Positions 2-63,994 are shown, numbered from the stretch's first letter. The stretch is 64,000 nt of DNA from Plasmodiophora brassicae (GCA_036867785.1 CP145409.1:62001-126000); one strand, 5' to 3'. Program-made: numbers and translations. The notes: generated by a model from the letters alone, not told the origin.

Positions 2-612
2 AAGCACGACGTTCACTGCGCAGGTTTGAGCCTGCCACAACGGTCAGCGACTTGCGCCTCGCGGAAGGATCGTTGGTATAACTTCGCGCTACGCTTCCAA
101 ATGGACGGCGCGTCCTCGGTGCAGGCACGGGTTTGTCAAGAATGGAGGTAATGGTAAAATCGGTCCGATAAAGAGCCTCGGACGATCGCGGCACAGCTGG
201 GGGGTGTCCCGACTTATTCACATGTGGTTTCCAAGTTCCTGACAACACCAAGATCAATATGTACTCGAGGTCAGCGACCATGTTAGATGGACGGACAGGA
301 GCGGGGAGAGAAGCAACGCCCCGGAGGGTGTTCTTTGGCTAGAAATGCACCTGCGGTCAATGCAGAGATCGAAAAGCGAAATGATGACACAAACCTTGGA
401 GGCGGGAAGCTGAGTCTTATTCCGACATGATCTCTTCCGAGGCCTTTTAGGTTTTACCATTACCTCCATTCTTGACAGCACCCGTGCCTGCACCGTACCG
501 AGGACGTCCCATCCATTTGGAAGCATAGCGCGAATACCAACTATCCTTCTGCGAGGCGCAAGTCGCAGACCGTTGTGGCAGGCTCAAACCTGCGATACTG
601 AACGTCGTGCTT
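2..612. repeat. Long imperfect inverted repeat (arms ~2-160 and ~451-612); potential long hairpin RNA
   Basis: The reverse complement of 451-612 (aagcacgacgttcagtatcgcaggtttgagcctgccacaacgg...gtcaagaatggaggtaatggtaaaac) aligns to 2-160 with few substitutions or indels. The left arm may extend beyond the window start. Confidence 0.9.
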
Positions 613-35350: not shown

Positions 35351-37221
35351 AGCTCCTCCTTGGGCGAATGTTCGGTCGGGCGGTCGTGTTGGGGAAAGCT
35401 ACAAACGCTTAGACCTCATCATAAAGAACTTAGCACATTGTCAATGGGCGCGCGTCGTACGTACCCGCCCTGGCGGTTTCGGCTGCCGCGCCGTGCTTCG
35501 AATCGCATTCGTCGGACGCCCTCGTGACTACCACGGGACCAACAATGGCTAATGTTGTCTGTGTGGTCAGCTGCGGAAGAGCAGGTCGTCTGTGCCGATG
35601 TTTGCGACTCGACGGCGGTGAGTGAGGGGCGCTATCGCGTTGCTGGTGCAGACGGTACTGCGATCGATTCCTGATAGGCGCCCGCAGCCACCTGCACCAG
35701 TACAACCTGGCATGTGTGGATGGGGTGTACAGCAAATCCCCGCTAAGGTCGTTGGGTAGTTCCCCGTCAACCACGTTGTGGCGACGTATGCTGTGACTCT
35801 TTGTCAGGCTCGTTTATACAAGTGTCTGTGTTCGTAAGCGGCCAGGCGCGGGCGTGCGAACGACGTTGACCGCGTGCGCCGCGCCGAGGTCAGTGACCAG
35901 ATCGAGGACGAAGAACAACTATTGGGCCTCCAACAAGATATCCCGACGACGATCACGATTAGGACCCATCAGGTACGCGCTGTGGTAGTCGTTGTCCCCG
36001 TCGTCGTGCACTGAACCGTGTCGGTAGAATGAGCGGGATCGTGTCAACCGTGATGAAGCGGTCATGGAGATAGACAACGTGTTCGACGGCAATCTCCACG
36101 AAGGGAACCCGGATGAACGCGACGACGACCGCCGAGAGCCGGGCGACGACGACGATGTTGGAGACGACGAGGAGCTGGACACAGCGATAGGCGAGCATGA
36201 CCCAAGGAAAACGTCGTCGACGAGCAACTGTTCGTACCGGGGTGTCTTGTCCCATGGAACGTACGACTCACGGTGTGCCCAGGTTGGATGATAACGTTGA
36301 TAAGGAAGATGAGGTACTGCTCGACGCTAGAAGCTGGAAGACGACGAGAAGGTGGAGGGCCAGTGTCCGGATTAGTTAGATATTGGTGCTGGTCTCGACG
36401 ATCAGGTCGGCCGAGATGCGCAAGGTGCCGATGCCCAGCAAGCATCTTTCCGATCTTCCCGAACGTGTGCACAACGCCAAAGCTTCCAATAAGGTGGGTG
36501 CTTCGCGTGGTGTGCGGGAGGGGGCGCAACGTAGGGGCCTGTTAACCACCGTCAGTACTTCGAATATCGCGGTCGACGCTTACTTGAGTGTGGTGGTGTC
36601 CGCTATCGCGATTCTGCAGCTTCACAGACTGTTCGTCAGCAGCCGCGTGGCGTCTCGCTGAACCGGAGTTGGTCATTGTGTGGGATGCGGTAGGTGCCTT
36701 GCTGCGTTGGGTCGGTGTGGCGTGTCGGGTCAGACGCCGGTTCAGCGCGCGCGCAGAGCTGCTGACGAACAGCCTGTGAGGCTGAAGAACGGCGAAACGG
36801 ACACCAACCTAAGTAAGGAAATTCTATGTTTAATCGTAATGAATAAAAGGTAGGTGTCGCCTGGAGTTGCTGTTATGCGGCGCCGGATCGTCAGCGATCG
36901 CCGGTCGCCCGAGCAGGTGATGGTACGCACTGCGCCGGCTGTGCTCGGTCCACGCAGCGGGCGTATGCACCGCAGCGCTGGCTTAAAGCAGCAAGTCGAC
37001 ATAGCGGTCTGGTTCGTGCTGGACGTGCTCGACGACGGCCTCGGCGGCGGGGACGGGGACGGCGGCGGCTTGGTTGTCCGGATCGTCCTGCAGGCCGGGT
37101 TCGACGAACGCGATGCAGTGCGGTCCGGCCAGCGATGCGACGCCTGGGCCGACATCGACAACGGCGCCCCATGCAGGCACTTGGCGACGGTTGCCCGGGT
37201 CGCCGTACCCAGCACGTGCAT

Positions 37222-39165: not shown

Positions 39166-39799
39166 TCTGCCGTCGGTCCGCCATGGCATCGAGCGCCGAC
39201 CGCCGACCGGCGACCACGGTAGGCCGACAAACCAATGAAACCATGCGCAAACTTGCGCAACCTTGCGCAAACTTGCGCAAACTTGCGCAACGTTGCGCAA
39301 CGTTGCGCGCGCAACGCGCCGTACCTTGCGCGCGCAACGTTTTTTTTTGTAGCTTCGAGGGTGGTTGCCGCCTCGGCATACCCTGGAGACATCACGGACT
39401 CGGCCGCGGACTCCGCCACGGTTGGCCTGTACCTACATACGTACATACGGACACCGGGAAGGTGATGTCCGGGAAGGACAGTAGATAGCGAGCGCGGCAC
39501 ACACAGCGTCTTGCTACGCCCGTCCGTTATGCATCTATCCTACAGGAACAATGTCCTGCGCACCTACGAATCGTTTTCAGCTACATGCGCATGGGGCATT
39601 CGGATGCAAACCGTATTGTCTGCCACGTTGGTTCCTGACGCTCCCGGATCCGCTATGTAGATAGGTATCGGTATTTGCAGCGCCATGCAGTCCTGTACTG
39701 GTGATATGCCGAAGATGATCAGCGAGAAAACCAAAGTCGAAGAGAACAGCGGTACCGGTGATCGCGGACTCCGTGGCGGACTTCGTAACGTCCAACAGG

Positions 39800-41540: not shown

Positions 41541-42127
41541 AGACGTCTTCTACGTACGTACCGGACCTACAAGTATAAAGAGCAGAAAAAAATGTGAAAC
41601 TCGGCAAAAACTGAGGTCTAATCTCAATGTGAATATGGGTGATCTGGGCGTCCATTCAAGTCAGTTTTCCTTCCACTGCTGACGGTGGGAAGTTTTCCCT
41701 GCTCCGTTTCCGGCCTTAGGCGGTACCTCCCTCATTATCAACCACGACGCCCCGCCCTCCGGCGGGTCGCCATTGTTGGCCGCCGGCTTGGAATGGGCCG
41801 ACCGTCAACATGGACCTCCCAGGCCCAACATCACAACGGATTATCCACACAGTCTTTGTCCCCGCACGGGTCACAGGATATCGCTACTACCCCGACATTG
41901 GACCAATGTTCCACCTGGCCCTATATACCCAGCCACTTCACGCACTGCCACAGCCTATGGGACCGGCGCGAACACACTGGCGGACTCGGACTGCCCATGT
42001 CGGATCAGCAACAAGGTATGGCAACCTGACCCTATTAACGCAGTCCCAGAGCCTACGGGAGGGCCTGGGCCTAAACCGGTGAATAATCCAGTCGAATTCT
42101 GGAGCCGAGATGAATATAATACATTAA

Positions 42128-54076: not shown

Positions 54077-57000
54077 TTACGAGGTGGTCTGGATGGCGAT
54101 CTCCGACTCGCTGTCTTCGTCGATCAACGGCTGCATCGACAGGGACGACAACTCGATGAAACTTGAATAGCGCCGCGCGAACGTGGAGATAACCGGGTGT
54201 TTCGACAAGCGATCAGCGAGACGGAAGGCGCCGACTTTGCACGCTACAATGACAAGGTTAGCACTTGCTCGCTCGCAGTACTGGTGGGAGCACTGTACCG
54301 TCTTGGATGATGAACCAGACTAGGCAATAGATCCAAATGAAGATGACGTTCTTGAAGTGGACGGGTTCGGCGCCCTGGTCGAACGGCCACGTTAACGACA
54401 GGATCGTCGACATCAGCACTGCGAAGAACGCTGCCGCGAGCAAGGCAATGCTGTTACACGCACAGCCTATGAGCGCCCCCTTCCATCAAACGGCGCATCA
54501 TTGTCAACCTCGGGCGCGACGAATAGCACGGTGCGGCCCCAGTTCGTGCCGTGAATATCGTCAGGAAGTCGGACAGGCTCACTTTGACTGCACCACCGAC
54601 GACGTCAGCTCCGTAATACGCGTCCTGCATTGGACCGCTTACGGTAGATAGAGGTGACAACGGACCCATAGGTCATGGGAGGCAGGCCCAGCATGTGGAA
54701 CATGGACCCGGACCTAACAGGGACGCACATGATTCGCGGGACACGCTCTGGCAACGCGCGTGCCACGTACGAGACCGAGTTCAGGGATAGGTGCAGCAAC
54801 ACGAGGGATGATGCACAGGCAACAGATCCCAAGGTGAACGCCATGCCCCACAGTTTCATCAGGTTCCACGAATCCGGTTGCTTCGACGCCGTCACCCGGT
54901 CGTACGCGATGCTGACCTACAGCACCACGATGAATGCCATGCAGTTTGAGGCAGGGTGGGCAGGCGCACGATGGTGCCGTCATTGAGGACGGTGATGACA
55001 ATGAGGGCAATAACGGGCATCTTCCAGAAGGGCGGGAACGACGGGTCGTACGCGGCTGGATGCACGAACAGAACGCCAATAAAGAAGAACGTAAGAAGCT
55101 GGATCGTCGCCGCTATGCGGTACACGAGGAACGAATGCATGCGCGCGAAGATACGTCTAGCAATGATGACGGCCTAGCGCGAAACGTTCAGCGTATGGAA
55201 CGCGGCGCATGGTCACCCGTTACCGCACCTCGACAATGGCGCCGAGGCCCGGCTCTGTCAGGATGATATCAGCAGCGGCTCGTGCAGCGTCAGTCGCCCC
55301 ATGAACCGCCTACACTCGCCCTGGTCAAATTCTGACGGTGCCCAGACGACGTTCAGGCCACTGACGATTCCAACGCTGGCCACCTTCAGCGCGGGTGCGT
55401 CGTTGACGCCGTCACCCGTCATCCCGACGATCGCACCCGACTGCTTCAGTGCCTCGACGATGACGTACTTGTGCTCGGGGAGCGCCTGCGAGAACCCGTC
55501 CTTGGACATGACCAGCGGTGCGTAATCGCGCCCCAGCGTGTCCGGCACGCTCAGGTGCCCGCCCGATAAATCGATCGTTGGCAATTTGCCGAGCGTGCAC
55601 TGCATAATGTCGGCTTGGCCCAGCCCCAGCGCCTTTGACGTCTCCACGGCCACCAGTTGATGGTCGCCCGTGATCATCTTCACGACGACGCCGTACTCGT
55701 TCGCCTTCTTAATGGTCGCTTTGGAATCCGGCCTGGGTTGCAATTGATGAATGATGGCATAGGTGGGCGCCTTGCCCGTACTGGCAGTACCTTGGTGGAT
55801 CCAGGAACGACAGGATGCCCATGATGGCCCACTGGCCATCCGGTTCAGTTCGCGCCACAGCCAGCGAACGCACCCCACGCGCCGCCAAGTCGAGAACGGC
55901 GTTCTCCACAGGTCCCTGCCGCGCTCGTTCATACCGGGGGCACAATCGCGGCATCGTCCGCCATGCCACCCGTACCTCGAAACGCTTCCGATTCTGGCAT
56001 AGCTCCAGGAGAACGTGCGGGGCGCCTTTGGCAACGCGATACGTGCGACCTGCCGAACAAAGCGGTTCACTGATCGCCGATGGCACGATCGAGGCCGTTC
56101 TGGCACGCACCGGTTGGGTCCCGCACGACGGCTTCGGTCCGTTTCAGCGACGGGTCGAACGGCGTATAGTCGATCTGCTCAAACTGATTGCACCTGTCGA
56201 AGTCGGTGACGCCCAGGATCTGCCCTTCGCCTGTCAGTTCATCGACGCCGTTCTCGGTGCTGTTGATGACACACGTACCATCGTGTCTAGCGCGTCTTTC
56301 GGCGGCTCCTTCCATTTCGTCGCGAGCGATGCGTGCAGGAGGACATCGGCGCGCGTCACACCTGGCAGGTACGTCGGGCACTCGTTCTGGATCACCATCT
56401 TGTTCAGCGTCAGCGTTCCCGTCTTGTCCGAGCACAGGACTGTGATCCCCGACAGCCTCTCGATTGCTGACAAGCACGCCACGATCGCCTGACTCTGCCT
56501 GTCAACTGCTGCTCCTGCCCATGGTCCCCGTCGGCGACACGCAGGCCCTTACCGATTCGGCAGCGAGTTCACGGCTGCCAAGCGCTAACGTGGCCGTGAC
56601 GACAACCTCCATCGCGATCGGGATCGACGCGACCATCAGGACGACGACGAACCCGAGCGATTCGGTCACGTTCTCGCCGTTCAGGAGCAGGTACAGCAGC
56701 GTGATGCCACAGAGGACCGTCGATGCGCCCAGAAGGACCAGCACGACCCGCAGCAGCAACTTCTGCAGTTCGCCGAGCTCGTCGACGCCCGCCTGGAGCA
56801 GCGCGGCCGTCTTCCCGTAGAACGTCTGCATGCCCGTCAGGAACACGGTCGCTTCGACCTCGCCCCTCGCCACCGTTGACCCCATCCTCACGGTCATTCC
56901 TTTGCCCATGCGCACCGGCAGCGATTCGCCTTCGCGCGTGGACGTTAGCCAGGGTGCGACGGCGATGCCAGGCACGCGTACCTGTTAACGACGACTGGTC

Positions 57001-57733
57001 GACGTGGACGATGCCGCTGTTGACGACGCAGTCAGCGGGGACGGCCGTCCCCGAGCTGAGCGTGACGCAGTCGCCAGGGACGAGCAACGCGGCGTGGATC
57101 GTCTGCCAGACGCCATCGCGTTTGACCTGCGCGACTGGGTGCGCGCGTTAGTCGCCCCGGCCCGCACCCACAAGGCAGCCGCGTGCACCACGCACCGGGC
57201 TTCAGCGTCGCTTTCAGGGCGGCGACGGCGTTGCCCGCCTTGCGCGCCTCCAGGAACCCGACGGTGCCGTTGATGCATTGCAGGATGAAGAGAATGACGG
57301 CGTCGGCCCACTCCTGCAGGCTGGCCTCGACGACGATGGCGATCCAGATGCCGATCGGCATCGGCGCCGTGAACTGCTCCAGGAACAGCTTCCACATCGG
57401 CTTCACCTTCTCGACCAGCTCGTTGCGCCCGTACCTGCGAAGGTACTCGGCGGCTTGCGCTGATGTCAGCCCCGACGAGAACGGGATCGGCGGTGCGGTG
57501 CCTTCGTCGCCCATCATGGACGACCGGTGCTTATCGGTGCGCGCCGAATGGAACGTCGCGTGGACCTCGTCCTCATCGGGCACCAGGGCCTCATGTTCGT
57601 CACCCTCGGCGGATCGTTCGACGATTCCCGCGTCGGAATGTGTCGCCCGCAACAGTGTCTTTGCTGAGGCGGGCCCAACGTCGTCATCGTCGCTGAACTT
57701 GGACCCGACAACGACCACCTCCATGGACGGCAT
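54077..57733 (-). CDS. PMA: Plasma-membrane P3A-type H+-ATPase, many introns
   Basis: YGRNEL, VDQSSLTGES, SIPIAM, CSDKTGTLTLN, KGAP, MITGD, GMTGDGVNDAPALK, YRIA and LNDGT. Confidence 0.95.
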
Positions 57734-58051
57734 TAGGCTATGTGAACAACGGTACGGCACACACCGAAAATCGGTACCGTACGGTGGGGGTATGACCATC
57801 TCCAGAATATCAGCGCTAATCACACGGGTCGCCCCACAAGGCAAATGCCATGTACGGGATGTGATCGCGCGGGGGGAGGGGGCGCTGCCCCACAAGGCGC
57901 CGCCATGAACGGCACGGGTACTACTACTAGTAGTACGTCGTACGGTAGATGTTGCATGTCGTACGGGAGGCGTCTGGAATGCTGCGAGTCATATGACAGC
58001 GGCACATCCGTCGTTGCCAGAGTGGATCACTGAAGAGCGTTCGTCCCCGGT

Positions 58052-59300
58052 CATGGCGAGCGCGAAGAGGCGGCGTCTGATTGAGCCCACGCTGGATGCG
58101 TTCCCCGATCCCATGCTGGACGCCGTCGTCGCATTCCTGAACGCGCGCGACCTCTGCCTGGCATCCGTCGTGTCGCATCGGTTCCGGCGCCTCTGCGACT
58201 CGGACCGGTATAGTCACCCGATGATGCCTCCGGCTCTGACACGGTCTGAACGCATTCGCAGGGCGTGGGCCCGACTTCTCGATCCGGCGTTCATGGAGAC
58301 ACTGGCCGGCCTGGACACGGATCGTCAGCGCCCCGCCAGAGAGTTGGTCCAACGAGTTCTGCAGCCGGGCCGGTTCTTCACCCGGCTCGCATGGGTGCCT
58401 CTGCATACCACGTGTCCGGGTGCCAATACGGGGCCTCCGCCTGTCAAGTTCCACACGGCGACGTACCTGCCGCACCTGAACGCCATCTTGCACTTTGGTG
58501 GGTTCCTGGGCCCTGCGTTAACCGACGATGCGATCGTTCTGCACCTGGACTCGCACACGTGGGAACGCGTACCCACGGTGGGGGCGGTTCCCTGCGCGCG
58601 CGCCGGCCACGTATCAGTTGCGATTGGCACACGGGTCTACGTTATGGGAGGGCTGACCGACGTCGATGAACCATCCGATTCGGTCCACGTCCTGGAGACG
58701 TCGTCCGTCCCGATGAGATGGTCGAGTCGGACGGCGAAAGGCGACCGCCCAAAGGTTCGAGTGAACCGGTTCCTGCACAGGGCCCACGTTGCCGGTCATG
58801 AGATCGTCGTCGCTGGAACCTGGGACGGCGCATTCGTTGCTCGCGACTGGATCCAGGTGCGAGCGCTGGACACGCGAACAATGTCCTGGCGCTTCTGTGC
58901 CGGGTTCGGCGCCAGCGACCTCTATAATGCCAGCGTGGTCATCAACGGCAATCTGCACGTTATCGACAGCAAACATCTGACGCAAGTCGACATCTGGGGC
59001 AAGAGCACGCCCCATCAGGTGATTACGTCGGAGACGTGGCCGTACGACGAATCGGAGGAGATTCATGCTGTGGCGGTTGGGAACAAGGCGATCTGCTGGC
59101 AGGCGTGGATGCCGCGTGTCTTCGATGTCGAAGCCAGGCGATGGCTCCCGGTTACCATCGACAACAGGCACGACACACCGAACCTGGGCCGAGGGCTCGC
59201 ATTCTGTTCAGCTGGTGCTAGCCTTATCGTCACCGGCATACAAAGTAACACGAGAGGGGCGACAATGACGGCATGGGCGCTAGCTCCCGTTACTTTTTAA
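58052..59300 (+). CDS. F-box/kelch-repeat protein
   Basis: F-box LDAFPDPMLDAVVAFL..RDLCLASVVSHRF, then kelch repeats HFGG and PCARAGH...VYVMGG. Confidence 0.85.
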
Positions 59301-59339
59301 TACACAAGGGTTGCCTGACATTCACTCGGGTTGCTGGAG

Positions 59340-60480
59340 ACGGCGGAAACTGACAAGCCTGAACGACATCACGAACAACCGATCCGCAATGTCCATCGGC
59401 AATCGCATTCGCCAATCTCAGGTGACGGGTACCCTGGGTCGCTAGCGAACCGGGTCGACGCGTCGCCTGAGAGCTGAGTCGAATGCGAAAGACGATGGAC
59501 ATTGAGGAACGACTGCCCGTGATCGCATGATCGCCGCTGTTCAGATTATCGCCGTTGCTTTGAGTTCGTCCCTGCTTGGCTCCGCCGTGGTCTTGTGCTA
59601 CATCGTTGCGTGTGGTCGCCGTGGCCTTATGTACTGGAATGACGGGATCCACAGGAACGACCGCTTCGGAAGTGATGTCGGCGGCAAAGGTATACCAAGT
59701 TCCGACGGCCGATTAATCCGGCCGAACGAACACCTGCCGAAGCGGACCGGCCGACCGGGGAGGACGCAACGTCGATGAGGGGCCTGGTTGATCGCGTTGT
59801 TGTGGAGGGTGGACGGAATTAATTGTGGCCCGGCGGAGTCCGCGATGTCCGCGAAGGACTCGACTCTCGAGGTTCCCCGCGGGTGTGGACGTGACAACGA
59901 CCCGCGGACGCCGTACGGTGTTTCCGGAGTCCGCGGTCCCACCGAAGCTCGGCGTCTGCCTGCGGAGTGCGTGCGGCGTTGCTCGGGCCGGCGACTTGAA
60001 GGGACTACTGGTACATAGGTATGTAGGTAGTCTCGCTCGAGAACGCTTGGGCATGGCTTCACATGGCGCAGCTGAATGGCGTTATTGAAATCAAGAACGA
60101 TTGATCCGCAAATGTCCATCGGCAATCCCATTTATCTCGTTGGCATAAACTCCATCCCGCAAAGGGCAGACACATGGCAGCGAGCCGAATGGGACTGCTG
60201 GTGGACATTGAAAACCGGTGGGTCGTGATCGGATTACCGCAGCTCACAGGCAGTTTAGAACATGTTTCTGAAACATGATACGGAGCTGCTGGGAACAGCA
60301 TTAACGACACCAGGATTCATCGATCCGCAATGTCCATCGGCCGTCCCATTGGACTGCCGCCAGATGTCCGAAGCAGACGGTCACGATGGACAAGTCCAAT
60401 GGGGAATTTGGACGATGGACATTGAGGACCGCTTGCTCATGATCGCGCATTCGTCGCTGCTCTGATACCCAGTTGTTCCG
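59340..60480 (+). ncRNA. Candidate polycistronic pri-miRNA-like locus with three paralogous hairpins
   Basis: GATCCGCAA(A)TGTCCATCGGC at 59381, 60103 and 60322, each paired with a downstream (GA/GG)TGGACATTGA arm near 59494, 60200 and 60414. The inner stems differ in sequence but still pair. Confidence 0.65.
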
Positions 60481-61110
60481 ACTCCAATGTCTGTTTAGGC
60501 AGTATCTCTTGTCGGTGACGTCAACATTGTCGTCGACCAGGGCACCTGTGTCTGATGCTCACCAGCTCGTACGGTCAGTACTCGCTGTACAGCTCACTCG
60601 GCTGGTATGCCATCGTATTCAATAGAGAGACGACGTACACCTGCTGAGTCTGGCTTCAGGGATGCACCAGCGTCATGCTCTGCTACCTTTCAAGCCTACG
60701 AATACCATCCACTCGCATTAGCCACCAAACCTGCATAGAGGAGCTACGTCGACGGGCCGTTCGGATGCCGCATCGGCCGTACCAGGGGCCGTCCGCCGGT
60801 ATAACACAGCACAGCGCCGTCGACGACGCCCAACGCTGCCACCAGGGCGATCGCCGGACAGTAGAACTCGACGACCGAAGGCTCCAGTTGCGCAACCTGA
60901 CGTAAATGCTGAACTGATCCGGCACGACGAGATGCAGCCACAGTGTATTCAATCCTGGCCAGGCCATTCGAGTCTGATCAACGACAAACTACAGCGCCTT
61001 GAGGGGAGAGGCACCCTTTGCAGGCTGGACAACCGCCGGAACAGGCAAACACCGCCTGGTCGCCAAACTGGCCGCGATTGTACGGAACCGGCGGAGCGAA
61101 AACAGGGACG

Positions 61111-61560
61111 ATGCGTCGTCGTCGGCGGCTCCTGGCTAGCCATGAGCGCATCCGGCAGCAGTTGCAGGGCGCACACGATAGCAGCACCGATACCGAAAAT
61201 GCCCTCGTGATACCATCAGGCGCGCTACGGTGCACACAGGATCACGTCCGGTGGGTCGAGGCGGAGACACCGGCGAGCACGTCCCAGGCATCGCTATCCA
61301 CGGCTGTCGTTTCCGATGGCGACACCGAAGACGACGATGATGGCACCCGCACGGATGATGTTTGGGTTCGCTTTCTCATCGGGCGCGCCCGATCTGCGCT
61401 GTCGAAGCCGAATCTTCCAGAGCACGTCCGCCATCACCTGCAGACATTGCTGGCGACCCGGACGGACCCGTTCCGCTTACGACTGTGCTGCCTGGACATC
61501 GAGTCGGGCCGCATCCCGTCGATTAAGTTGGACGCGTCGTCCCGAACCGGGCTCGCGTAG
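61111..61560 (+). CDS. Hypothetical protein (probably part of a multi-exon gene spanning ~60.7-62.0 kb)
   Basis: Protein-like ORF (acidic tract, VWVRFLIGRARSALS..LPEHVRHHLQ). Exon structure unresolved. Confidence 0.35.
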   Translation: MRRRRRLLASHERIRQQLQGAHDSSTDTENALVIPSGALRCTQDHVRWVEAETPASTSQASLSTAVVSDGDTEDDDDGTRTDDVWVRFLIGRARSALSKPNLPEHVRHHLQTLLATRTDPFRLRLCCLDIESGRIPSIKLDASSRTGLA

Positions 61561-62115
61561 GTTCTGTACCGGTCGGTCGTACCGAGGCTGTGCAAGGGCC
61601 ACGTGCCCCCGTTGAGTGTTAACGGTGCCAGTACCACATACCCTCTTTGGTGGGCTCTCAGGTGCGTGCAGGCGTCGCATCGCGTATCGCTGGCCCTCGC
61701 ATCCTCTGTCGCCGACCTCCTCCAGCCGTTCGGGCACGTGCCTCGCCCCGATTTCTGAAACTTGTCTCCATGGCTGGCAGCGACCTGATGTCTTGCTGCT
61801 GAACTGATGCGGGTCACCGTTGGAGACGCTCCGTTCGCAATACCTGGTTGCGTCTGATGCGACGTATAAAATGTATTCTGGCAGTATCCAAGTACAAAGA
61901 ACAACCTTTCGTTATCGCTGGCTATTACTCGCGCATCGACCGTCCCCCACCGCGTCATTCAACGACACGCAGCACTGCCCATTGGGTCGACAAAAATCTG
62001 CCGAAAGATGTCATCTGTTTTTCGGGTGGCCCGGCTCCAATCAGTGGGTAGCACGTAGCACCGCTGATCGAGGTGGCATCCCGGCCGGTCTAACCAAGGC
62101 CCGTGTTTACGCGCG

Positions 62116-63994
62116 ATGCTGGCGCGAACGCTGCTGATGCGACGACCGCATCACTGCATTCGAACGATGGCCAAGAAACCGCCACCGACGCCACCGCCGT
62201 CGGCGCCAAATCTGAAACCCGACCGGAAATCCGCCTCGGTGACGAACGTGAAATCCCCTCCGGCGAACGCGAAGCCTCCGCCCCCGTCGAACGCGAAGCC
62301 TCCGCCCCCGTCGAACGCGAATTCCCCTCCGACTTCGAATGCGAAATCGCCGTCTAACGCAGGGAGCGGTGGTGGATCCGGTACGGGCACGAAGTTGCGG
62401 TGTACTTGGCATGTGACGTCATTCATCTTGTGCTTGCTAGGACCACCACTGCCCGTTGTGGAAGGTGCATCGAAACGGTCTTGGTTTCGTCGCTTCTTGG
62501 TAGTTGGGGGCGTTCCTGTTGTGCTTGGAGGATGTGCTCTGTATGCTTATCATCAGGACGAACGTGTTCGCGCAGTGGTTGACGATGCGATCGGCCCGCA
62601 ATATGCCGAGGTGGACCCATGTGCATCGTTGCGTTCTGTCGTGAATGTCAACCTGTCCAAAGGTGCTGCATGACGCTGTGCTGAAGGTCCACGACACTAT
62701 CCGTACGTTGTCGGATGATGCTCTTAAGGAAGATTACCAGTACGTAGCACACCGGACGACTTCCGGGCGCGTCTGACAACCGGCATGTGTTTCTCAGGAA
62801 GGCACGAAATCCGGATATTCCGCCTGAAGATTTAGAGGAAGGTGATGTTGTACAGCCAGGTGCGGTTACAGCGGAACCCGAGCCTGCACCGAACGATGCT
62901 GCTGCTCAAGTGCATGCGCTGGTGGGAAGCCTGGGACCTGTTGACCGGAGCGACTGCTTATGAGTGCACCCCATGACTTAGTTGCTTCAAAAAGAGGCAG
63001 AAGTACGGCACGAATACGACACAATGATTGAGCAGCGGGTTATGGACGCGCTGAAGTCGGCCATGCATCTTCGCGAGAGCGAACTGAAGGTCAAATACGA
63101 AGAAGATTTGATTGCGCAGGAGAAGGTGCTTCATTCGGTCAGATTCGCGTGCCTGTCAGCTGATGTTGTTTCAGGCCGTAAAAGCAGCGTTTGCAGAGGA
63201 GCGTGCTGGGCGTATGAAACGAATGTCTGACATTGAGGACAAAGTTGATAAAGTCGAGAGGATACTGTCATGGCACCAGGAGAAGCAGAGACAATCCCAT
63301 AAGGTCGTCAGTCATCGCCGTCTTTAACAGTCAGTCTGACATATACTGCAGGCGCACGTGCTTGCTGCGTCTGTAATCACCATGGACTCTGCACTCCAGT
63401 CAGGGTCGCCACTTGAGAACGGGTTCCTCGGCTTGAAGTCGATTGACAACGACAGTGCTGTCACGACAGCGCTTGAAACGGTATGCCGCACACTGTGACG
63501 CGTGATGTTCCCTGCAAACTTACGTTTTCGAATCAGCTACCTGCTGACCTTGTTGAAAGAGGTGCGCCTACTCTGGCTCAGCTTCAAGAGCGTTTCAAGG
63601 TCGTATCTGCCGCATGTCGTCGTGGTGCCCTGGTCCCGCCAGATGCGGGCGTTGTCGGTCATTTCCTAGGTATGTGCTGTGGGGGGCCCTGATTATATTG
63701 TCGCTAATGCTTGCATTGAAAGCATTCATATTTTCCATTCTTCTCGTCAACCGGAACTACTATTCGGACGGGTCTGACGATATCTCGAAATTGTACCGAG
63801 CCTCGTATTTCCTTTACCAAGGTGACCTGTACAACGCTGTCGACGAGATTGGTGGCCTGGAGGCGGACGGTCTCCCACGAAGACTTGCTGCTGATTGGCT
63901 TGCTGACGCCAAGAACCGGCTCATTGCAGTGCAGACCGTGCAATTCCTGAAAGCATACGCGTCGGAACTAGCCACCACGAATGCGCTTGCTTGA
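62116..63994 (+). CDS. MIC60: MICOS subunit Mic60 (mitofilin), multi-exon
   Basis: Mitochondrial presequence, single TM and coiled coil, then GAPTLAQLQERF and L.RA.YFL..GDL..AV.E...WL.DAK.RL (mitofilin domain). Confidence 0.9.
62265..62345 (+). repeat. 24-bp coding tandem repeat (NAKPPPPS) in MIC60 N-terminus
   Basis: aacgcgaagcctccgcccccgtcg x2, plus degenerate flanking copies. Confidence 0.85.

Follow-up and report, generated by a model that had tools for sequence, protein, structure and literature searches.

Three paralogous foldbacks in the genome of Plasmodiophora brassicae probably form a polycistronic locus of the microRNA (miRNA) type, i.e. a hairpin small-RNA locus with a predicted small-RNA output; the probability of this reading is put at roughly 0.62. 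The window analysed here is a 64,000-nt stretch (GCA_036867785.1, CP145409.1:62001-126000), and all positions are counted from its first letter on the strand presented (Table 1). The original prediction, made from the sequence, had proposed such a locus. A single contig over all three hairpins, an intron on the plus strand, family-like conservation and the lack of an Rfam match speak for that proposal, and the fourth structured domain that had been part of it did not hold.

Table 1. Coordinates of the hairpin locus, of its neighbourhood in the window and of the contigs aligned to it.
Feature	Position	Strand	Remarks
F-box/Kelch gene	57993-59300	+	Pfam; stop codon at 59300, upstream of the hairpins
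Hairpin 1	59364-59525	+	Repeat unit 59350-59546; ~64 nt per arm from conserved block to apex
Predicted 5p small RNA, hairpin 1	59380-59400	+	CGAUCCGCAAUGUCCAUCGGC; most conserved block of the family; putative register
Predicted 3p small RNA, hairpin 1	59493-59513	+	CGAUGGACAUUGAGGAACGAC; pairs with the 5p block; putative register
83-codon ORF	59527-59778	+	Longest plus-strand ATG ORF of the transcript; ~30-residue hydrophobic N-terminus
Spacer between hairpins 1 and 2	59547-60071	+	Holds the claimed fourth domain and most of the 83-codon ORF
Hairpin 2	60089-60235	+	Repeat unit 60072-60252; most diverged copy
Predicted 5p/3p, hairpin 2	60103-60123 / 60198-60218	+	Putative register
Hairpin 3	60305-60445	+	Repeat unit 60291-60466
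Predicted 5p/3p, hairpin 3	60321-60341 / 60413-60433	+	5p identical to that of hairpin 1; putative register
Intron	60605-60659	+	55 nt, GT..AG; joint 60603>60659
Contig X11	59302-60760		1,482 nt; bridges all three hairpins; intron retained
Contigs X16	59313-59810 and 59922-60593		
Contigs X17	59269-59802 and 60191-60605		
Contigs X19	58036-59478; 60027-60603 joined to 60659 onward		

A repeat search combined with alignment resolved the three units as direct repeats, each of which is an imperfect, near-complete palindrome of approximately 200 nt. As plus-strand RNA, every unit folds into a single long hairpin with a foldback length of 141-162 nt. The minimum free energy (MFE) was -96.1 kcal/mol for hairpin 1 (z -8.03), -72.5 kcal/mol for hairpin 2 (z -4.68) and -84.9 kcal/mol for hairpin 3 (z -5.22), and none of 200 shuffles was as good for any of the three, which bears out the claim of three paralogous fold-backs. 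The details that had been described for them are all present in the sequence as well, including the 3´ arms, a G-A mismatch common to hairpins 1 and 3, the G.U pairs of hairpin 2 and the paired inner stems. The apical 68 nt of hairpin 1 remained more stable than their shuffles when folded alone (z -4.32, 0/200 as good), and the apical part of hairpin 2 behaved similarly (z -2.52, 2/200 as good). The stability of the apical 43 nt of hairpin 3 was not above that of shuffles (z +0.46, 127/200 as good). Hairpin 2 contains an additional A midway through the 5p block, seven G.U pairs and a 4-nt asymmetric loop basal of the duplex, and its basal side is poorly paired. It is the weak member of the trio and may be a decaying copy. 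Minus-strand RNA folds slightly better for hairpins 1 and 3, whereas plus-strand RNA folds better for hairpin 2, so the strand is not readable from G.U content or folding energies. Downstream of hairpin 3, the region 60480-61050 contains no extra hairpin (fold z -0.64).

Other structured sequences were observed elsewhere in the window. A strong long hairpin at 36592-36808 has 38-nt arms that are 87% complementary (z -9.30, 0/200 shuffles as good) and may be another hairpin small-RNA locus. A 470-nt foldback at 72-541 comprises an outer stem of approximately 90 bp and a perfect 26-nt arm pair (134-159/452-477; z -10.61, 0/100 shuffles as good). The 64-nt stretch 39245-39308 is a palindromic run of GCGCAA(A/C)(C/G)TTGC-like units, the 32-nt arms of which are 84% complementary without a spacer. 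A signal recognition particle RNA gene is located on the minus strand at 41606-41896; it matches the Rfam family Plant_SRP over its full length with 153.1 bits (gathering score 105) and is the only Rfam match of the window at gathering scores.

The 5´ arms of the three hairpins share one short block. Exact copies of the 20-mer GATCCGCAATGTCCATCGGC lie at 59381 and 60322 and a copy with one inserted A at 60103, and the common 5´ arm with an optional A was thus recovered in all three hairpins as originally described. Elsewhere in the window, matches to this 20-mer with up to three mismatches were found only on the opposite arms (4 matches vs 0.01 expected). The best register predicted from the stem layout gives 21-nt strands, each with C at its 5´ end and a 2-nt 3´ overhang, and the borders of the invariant block coincide with the borders of the predicted 5p strand. 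The predicted duplex of hairpins 1 and 3 has two mismatches in 19 paired positions; that of hairpin 2 is worse. In all three copies, the stem reaches 14-16 nt below the predicted duplex, and the stem above the 5p start extends over 53-64 nt to the apex, which in hairpin 1 corresponds to approximately 3 x 21 nt. A foldback of moderate length that carries a candidate duplex with few mismatches in its stem is one of the criteria for a miRNA gene, and the locus contains such foldbacks. A target search of the 64 kb with the predicted strands returned nothing at or below a plant-type score of 6 apart from the hairpin arms, a result that says little because the window represents a minor fraction of the genome.

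The conserved block stands out from the rest of the arms. In pairwise comparisons among the three copies, identity reaches 20-21 of 21-22 positions in the 5p block, 14-18 of 21 in the 3p block, 15-24 of 30-33 in the basal part and 8-23 of 63-68 in the apex. Hairpins 1 and 3 are identical at 21/21 positions of the 5p block and at 18/21 positions of the 3p block; the corresponding values for hairpins 1 and 2 are 20/22 and 14/21. The conservation maximum lies mid-arm and not at the unit termini. A mature sequence conserved above the rest of the hairpin is a further criterion for a miRNA gene, and this pattern was observed among the three paralogues. A consensus structure, which admits a pair if it is predicted in two or more copies and was built from the same three sequences that it scores, has 94.5% of its 109 cells paired, compared with 25-46% after displacement of the partners by 1-3 columns. 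Changes on both sides occur in 3 of the 37 aligned pairs, for example in columns 57/138 (GC, CG, CG) and 62/133 (CG, UG, GC), and 18 of 500 column shuffles reached the observed pairing and covariation values. Covariation gives modest support and is weak with three sequences. The near-invariant 21-nt block, together with the double-sided pair changes, agrees with the earlier description of a conserved duplex joined to diverged, compensating loops.

Contigs of four runs (X11, X16, X17 and X19), none of which is on record as RNA, were aligned to positions 54500-63000; the runs X21-X24, which contain almost none of the sequence words, were left out. Four GT..AG joints in the downstream gene, 52-60 nt each (62381-62440, 62611-62662, 62740-62797 and 62922-62981), recur in all four runs, which are therefore treated as spliced RNA. 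The window has a GC content of approximately 60% and five GT..AG introns of 52-60 nt, features that fit P. brassicae, and DNA records in which the sequence occurs are labelled plant metagenome. The joint 60603>60659 was observed in two studies, in an X17 contig that carries hairpin 3 and in an X19 contig that carries hairpins 2 and 3. Because of this GT..AG joint, the RNA with hairpin 3 (X17) or with hairpins 2 and 3 (X19) is read as made from the plus strand. Plus-strand transcription, which the original prediction had proposed, is supported by this joint; the fourth domain and the G.U pairs contribute nothing to it. Transcription of the hairpin-forming strand also belongs to the criteria for a miRNA gene, and the hairpins are covered in 4/4 runs, the RNA nature of which is presumed. 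The contigs do not show strand, ends or a single molecule, and the span 59302-60760 is taken as the minimal extent of the primary transcript. There is no contig cover over 59803-60190 in X17 or over 59479-60026 in X19, and nothing is concluded from these holes. Depth in X11 is 70.9 over the hairpin contig vs 3-4 over the small Kelch contigs; since depth cannot rank genes, this is not counted as evidence.

Several further features of the contigs were observed outside the hairpins. An X17 contig skips 87 nt at 60694-60782 with CT..AC ends, which correspond to a GT..AG intron on the minus strand; this skip suggests that a transcript from the minus strand converges on the hairpin RNA and overlaps its 3´ end. 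In the F-box/Kelch ORF, 58 nt (58203-58260) are replaced by four other letters in X19, a net loss of 54 nt that is in frame, and the ends (GA..CA) are not intron-like. In protein searches, the Kelch protein matched itself and one weak hit, and a LETM1-like protein fell into broad eukaryotic clusters only. Two short stretches in a minus-strand P-type ATPase gene (55384-55422 and 57326-57382) are matched in 4/4 runs by contigs that are unlike the window on both sides, and these matches probably stem from other organisms in the samples that share conserved ATPase motifs.

The alternative that survives best is a transcribed structure that gives rise to no precise small RNAs. The hairpins would then belong to a structured lncRNA or to a UTR element of either the F-box/Kelch mRNA or the spacer ORF, and might serve as sites of RNase III cleavage or decay or release only heterogeneous hairpin siRNAs. 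A long 3´ UTR of the Kelch mRNA is consistent with the X19 contig that runs from the Kelch ORF (58036) into hairpin 1 (59478), and with the start of hairpin 1 approximately 50 nt behind the stop codon at 59300. However, the contigs of X11, X16 and X17 begin at 59269-59313, which is outside the Kelch ORF. Since the X19 contig joins the Kelch ORF to hairpin 1, the 5´ end of the hairpin RNA is located either near 59270-59310 or inside the F-box/Kelch transcript. Heterogeneous processing has precedent in Phytophthora, where hairpin loci range from precise to heterogeneous according to the available text of PMC3804510. A mere cleavage or decay site would not be expected to keep one 21-nt block at 20-21 of 21-22 positions while other parts of the arms have an identity of 55-70%. 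Given this conservation pattern, a transcribed structure devoid of precise products is regarded as unlikely, and a hairpin small-RNA locus is the preferred reading.

The spacer between hairpins 1 and 2 bears on the same alternative. The hydrophobic N-terminus of its 83-codon ORF favours a coding role, and the strain differences at 59602-59721 cluster in this ORF; four of the six differences are synonymous, and an inserted TAT is in frame on a codon boundary. However, the same differences are equally synonymous in an antisense ORF (59598-60131), so the plus-strand ORF is not singled out by this pattern. A search of the protein collection with the 83-codon ORF found neither a homologue nor the ORF itself as a called protein, and none of the ORFs over or near the locus on either strand belongs to a Pfam family. 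The transcript is apparently non-coding. The fourth structured domain that had been placed in the spacer, and used as evidence for the strand, was rejected. The 12-bp complement 59626-59637/60008-60019 that was to close the domain is present in the sequence. The region 59600-60045 folds at the level of shuffles (z -0.38, 33/100 as good; minus strand z -1.69), and the helix is missing from its MFE structure. The 3-nt insertion is located behind 59631, inside the 5´ strand of the helix, in contigs of two runs.

Strain variation is low over part of the locus. The X11 contig exhibits 12 differences from the window in 1,459 nt, none of which lies in 59722-60617. Two differences fall within the hairpins, one in the apical internal loop of hairpin 1 (59448) and the other at 59524, where a basal G-C pair is converted to G.U. 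X19 is more divergent and exhibits no differences in 60027-60603, whereas its flanks differ at 19 places (1,218 nt, upstream) and 23 places (1,721 nt, downstream); a hand estimate of the chance of this invariant stretch gives P ~5e-4. Haplotype structure could explain the invariance as well as selection could, because 59722-60617 also spans 367 nt of spacer and alleles are shared between the runs.

Within the window, the three units are confined to this cluster. A profile of the three copies recovered only these three in 64 kb, and three weaker matches on the minus strand represent the same palindromes. The segment 60771-60797, which matches hairpin 3 with 78% identity, was missed by this profile. 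Tandem Repeats Finder reported no arrays in 58000-62000, and Rfam gave no match at E<=1 on either strand of 58000-62000, which answers the earlier concern that the locus might belong to a known family such as a snoRNA cluster. In a metagenome scan with the 16/17-mer core CCGCAA(N)TGTCCATCGG, at least 117 stretches matched; among the 117 stretches listed, none includes the complete 20/21-mer or lies within 300 nt of an opposite arm, and these core matches are therefore considered chance matches rather than relatives. Pieces of 15 letters from both arms, written as DNA, RNA or reverse complement, were not found in the literature text searched. These results also bear on a second alternative, in which a neighbouring transcript happens to read through mobile-element copies of the foldback or MITE type or through a tandem inverted duplication in decay: each unit is indeed a near-complete palindrome, and two other strong foldbacks, unrelated in sequence, are present in the window (72-541 and 36592-36808), but there are only three copies in 64 kb, all in the same orientation and within 1.1 kb, no flanking target-site duplications were seen by reading the unit ends, conservation peaks mid-arm rather than terminally, compensatory pair changes are present, the listed metagenome matches lack the full block and the opposite arm, and the repeat content reported for P. 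brassicae in the available text of PMC4471660 is low (5.4%), which makes this explanation very improbable.

A mechanism can be proposed for the preferred reading, a polycistronic hairpin small-RNA locus, in which every step after transcription is inferred. Pol II would transcribe the non-coding primary RNA of approximately 1.5 kb from a start near 59270-59310, directly after the F-box/Kelch stop codon. An RNase III, possibly the published Drosha-like PbDRL, would cut each stem 14-16 nt above its base in the base-to-loop direction and free a 21-nt duplex with 2-nt 3´ overhangs, as predicted for hairpins 1 and 3 (Table 1). Its conservation, the highest of all blocks, marks the 5p strand as the likely guide; an Argonaute would take it up and, directed by it, slice complementary mRNAs from genes at other loci. 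Further phased duplexes could arise from the long stem of hairpin 1, which offers approximately 3 x 21 nt per arm.

A more far-reaching proposal is held only tentatively, with doubt outweighing confidence. The locus could be the first polycistronic miRNA cluster described in Rhizaria, in which a tandemly expanded family is carried on one spliced transcript and converted into 21-nt 5´-C duplexes by a lone Drosha-like enzyme without Dicer. In a bolder version, the same RNA would also code for a membrane peptide of 83 residues in the spacer that separates hairpins 1 and 2. If the arms yield small RNAs, the locus would show that tandem duplication within a single transcript enlarges miRNA families in this deep-branching lineage, as is the case in animals and plants. 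The three hairpins would then be natural substrate variants for Dicer-less, Drosha-like processing, which differ in stem length and quality and share one guide. The measuring rule of the enzyme would thereby become testable, both as the distance from the stem base and as phasing along the 64-nt arm. The locus has no practical weight until its targets are known.

The closest parallels in organisation are found in animals and plants. In the miR-17~92, MIR395 and MIR166 clusters, paralogous hairpins reside on one primary transcript that contains an intron, and the mature strand is conserved while the loops have diverged. The locus described here resembles them in that paralogous hairpins appear to share one RNA with an intron, the putative mature strand is kept and the loops have diverged. 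Unlike these clusters, it belongs to another lineage and bears no sequence relation to them (no Rfam match). Its stems of 53-64 nt per arm are far longer than those of animal pre-miRNAs, and its processing is a prediction.

Two types of loci in Phytophthora provide a comparison with plant-pathogenic protists. The MIR8788 family, as described in the available text of PMC3804510, is a conserved foldback family with paralogous copies, the arms of which are more conserved than the loop, and the present locus shares these features. In contrast to the tandem cluster on one RNA proposed here, the MIR8788 hairpins are single and located at separate or inverted loci. Membership in MIR8788 was rejected, since the published pin-miR8788 probe is unrelated to either arm (PMC3804510). 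The hpRNA or inverted-repeat siRNA loci, represented by pin-IR2758 of P. infestans in the same text (PMC3804510), also possess a long, near-continuous stem on which 21-nt phased dicing is possible. Unlike in such loci, one 21-nt block is selectively kept across the paralogues here, which suggests a single preferred product instead of a mixed population.

The most direct comparison is with P. brassicae itself. The view that miRNAs are poorly characterised in this lineage, expressed in the original prediction, is outdated, since 234 annotated miRNAs and their pathway were published for this species in September 2026, with Pb-miR002, Pb-miR041 and Pb-miR045 validated (main text of PMC13547706). 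According to that text, 90% of the small RNAs are 21 nt long, with 21-nt phasing, 2-nt overhangs and a strong 5´-C bias. The genome is described as having neither Dicer nor RdRP and one Drosha-like RNase III (PbDRL), which is needed for small-RNA production (main text of PMC13547706). Two slicer-type Argonautes (PbAGO1-2) are reported in the available text of PMC13547706 and PMC4471660. The main text of PMC13547706 contains neither the word 'polycistronic' nor any of four 8-letter pieces of the duplex core; the locus may be either already among the 234 annotated miRNAs or an unlisted family. Like the miRNAs described in that text, it comprises putative hairpin precursors in an intergenic region and, as predicted here, 21-nt duplexes with 2-nt 3´ overhangs and a 5´ C. 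Judged by these predicted features, the locus corresponds to the class of small-RNA genes with hairpin precursors that the main text of PMC13547706 presents for P. brassicae (2026).
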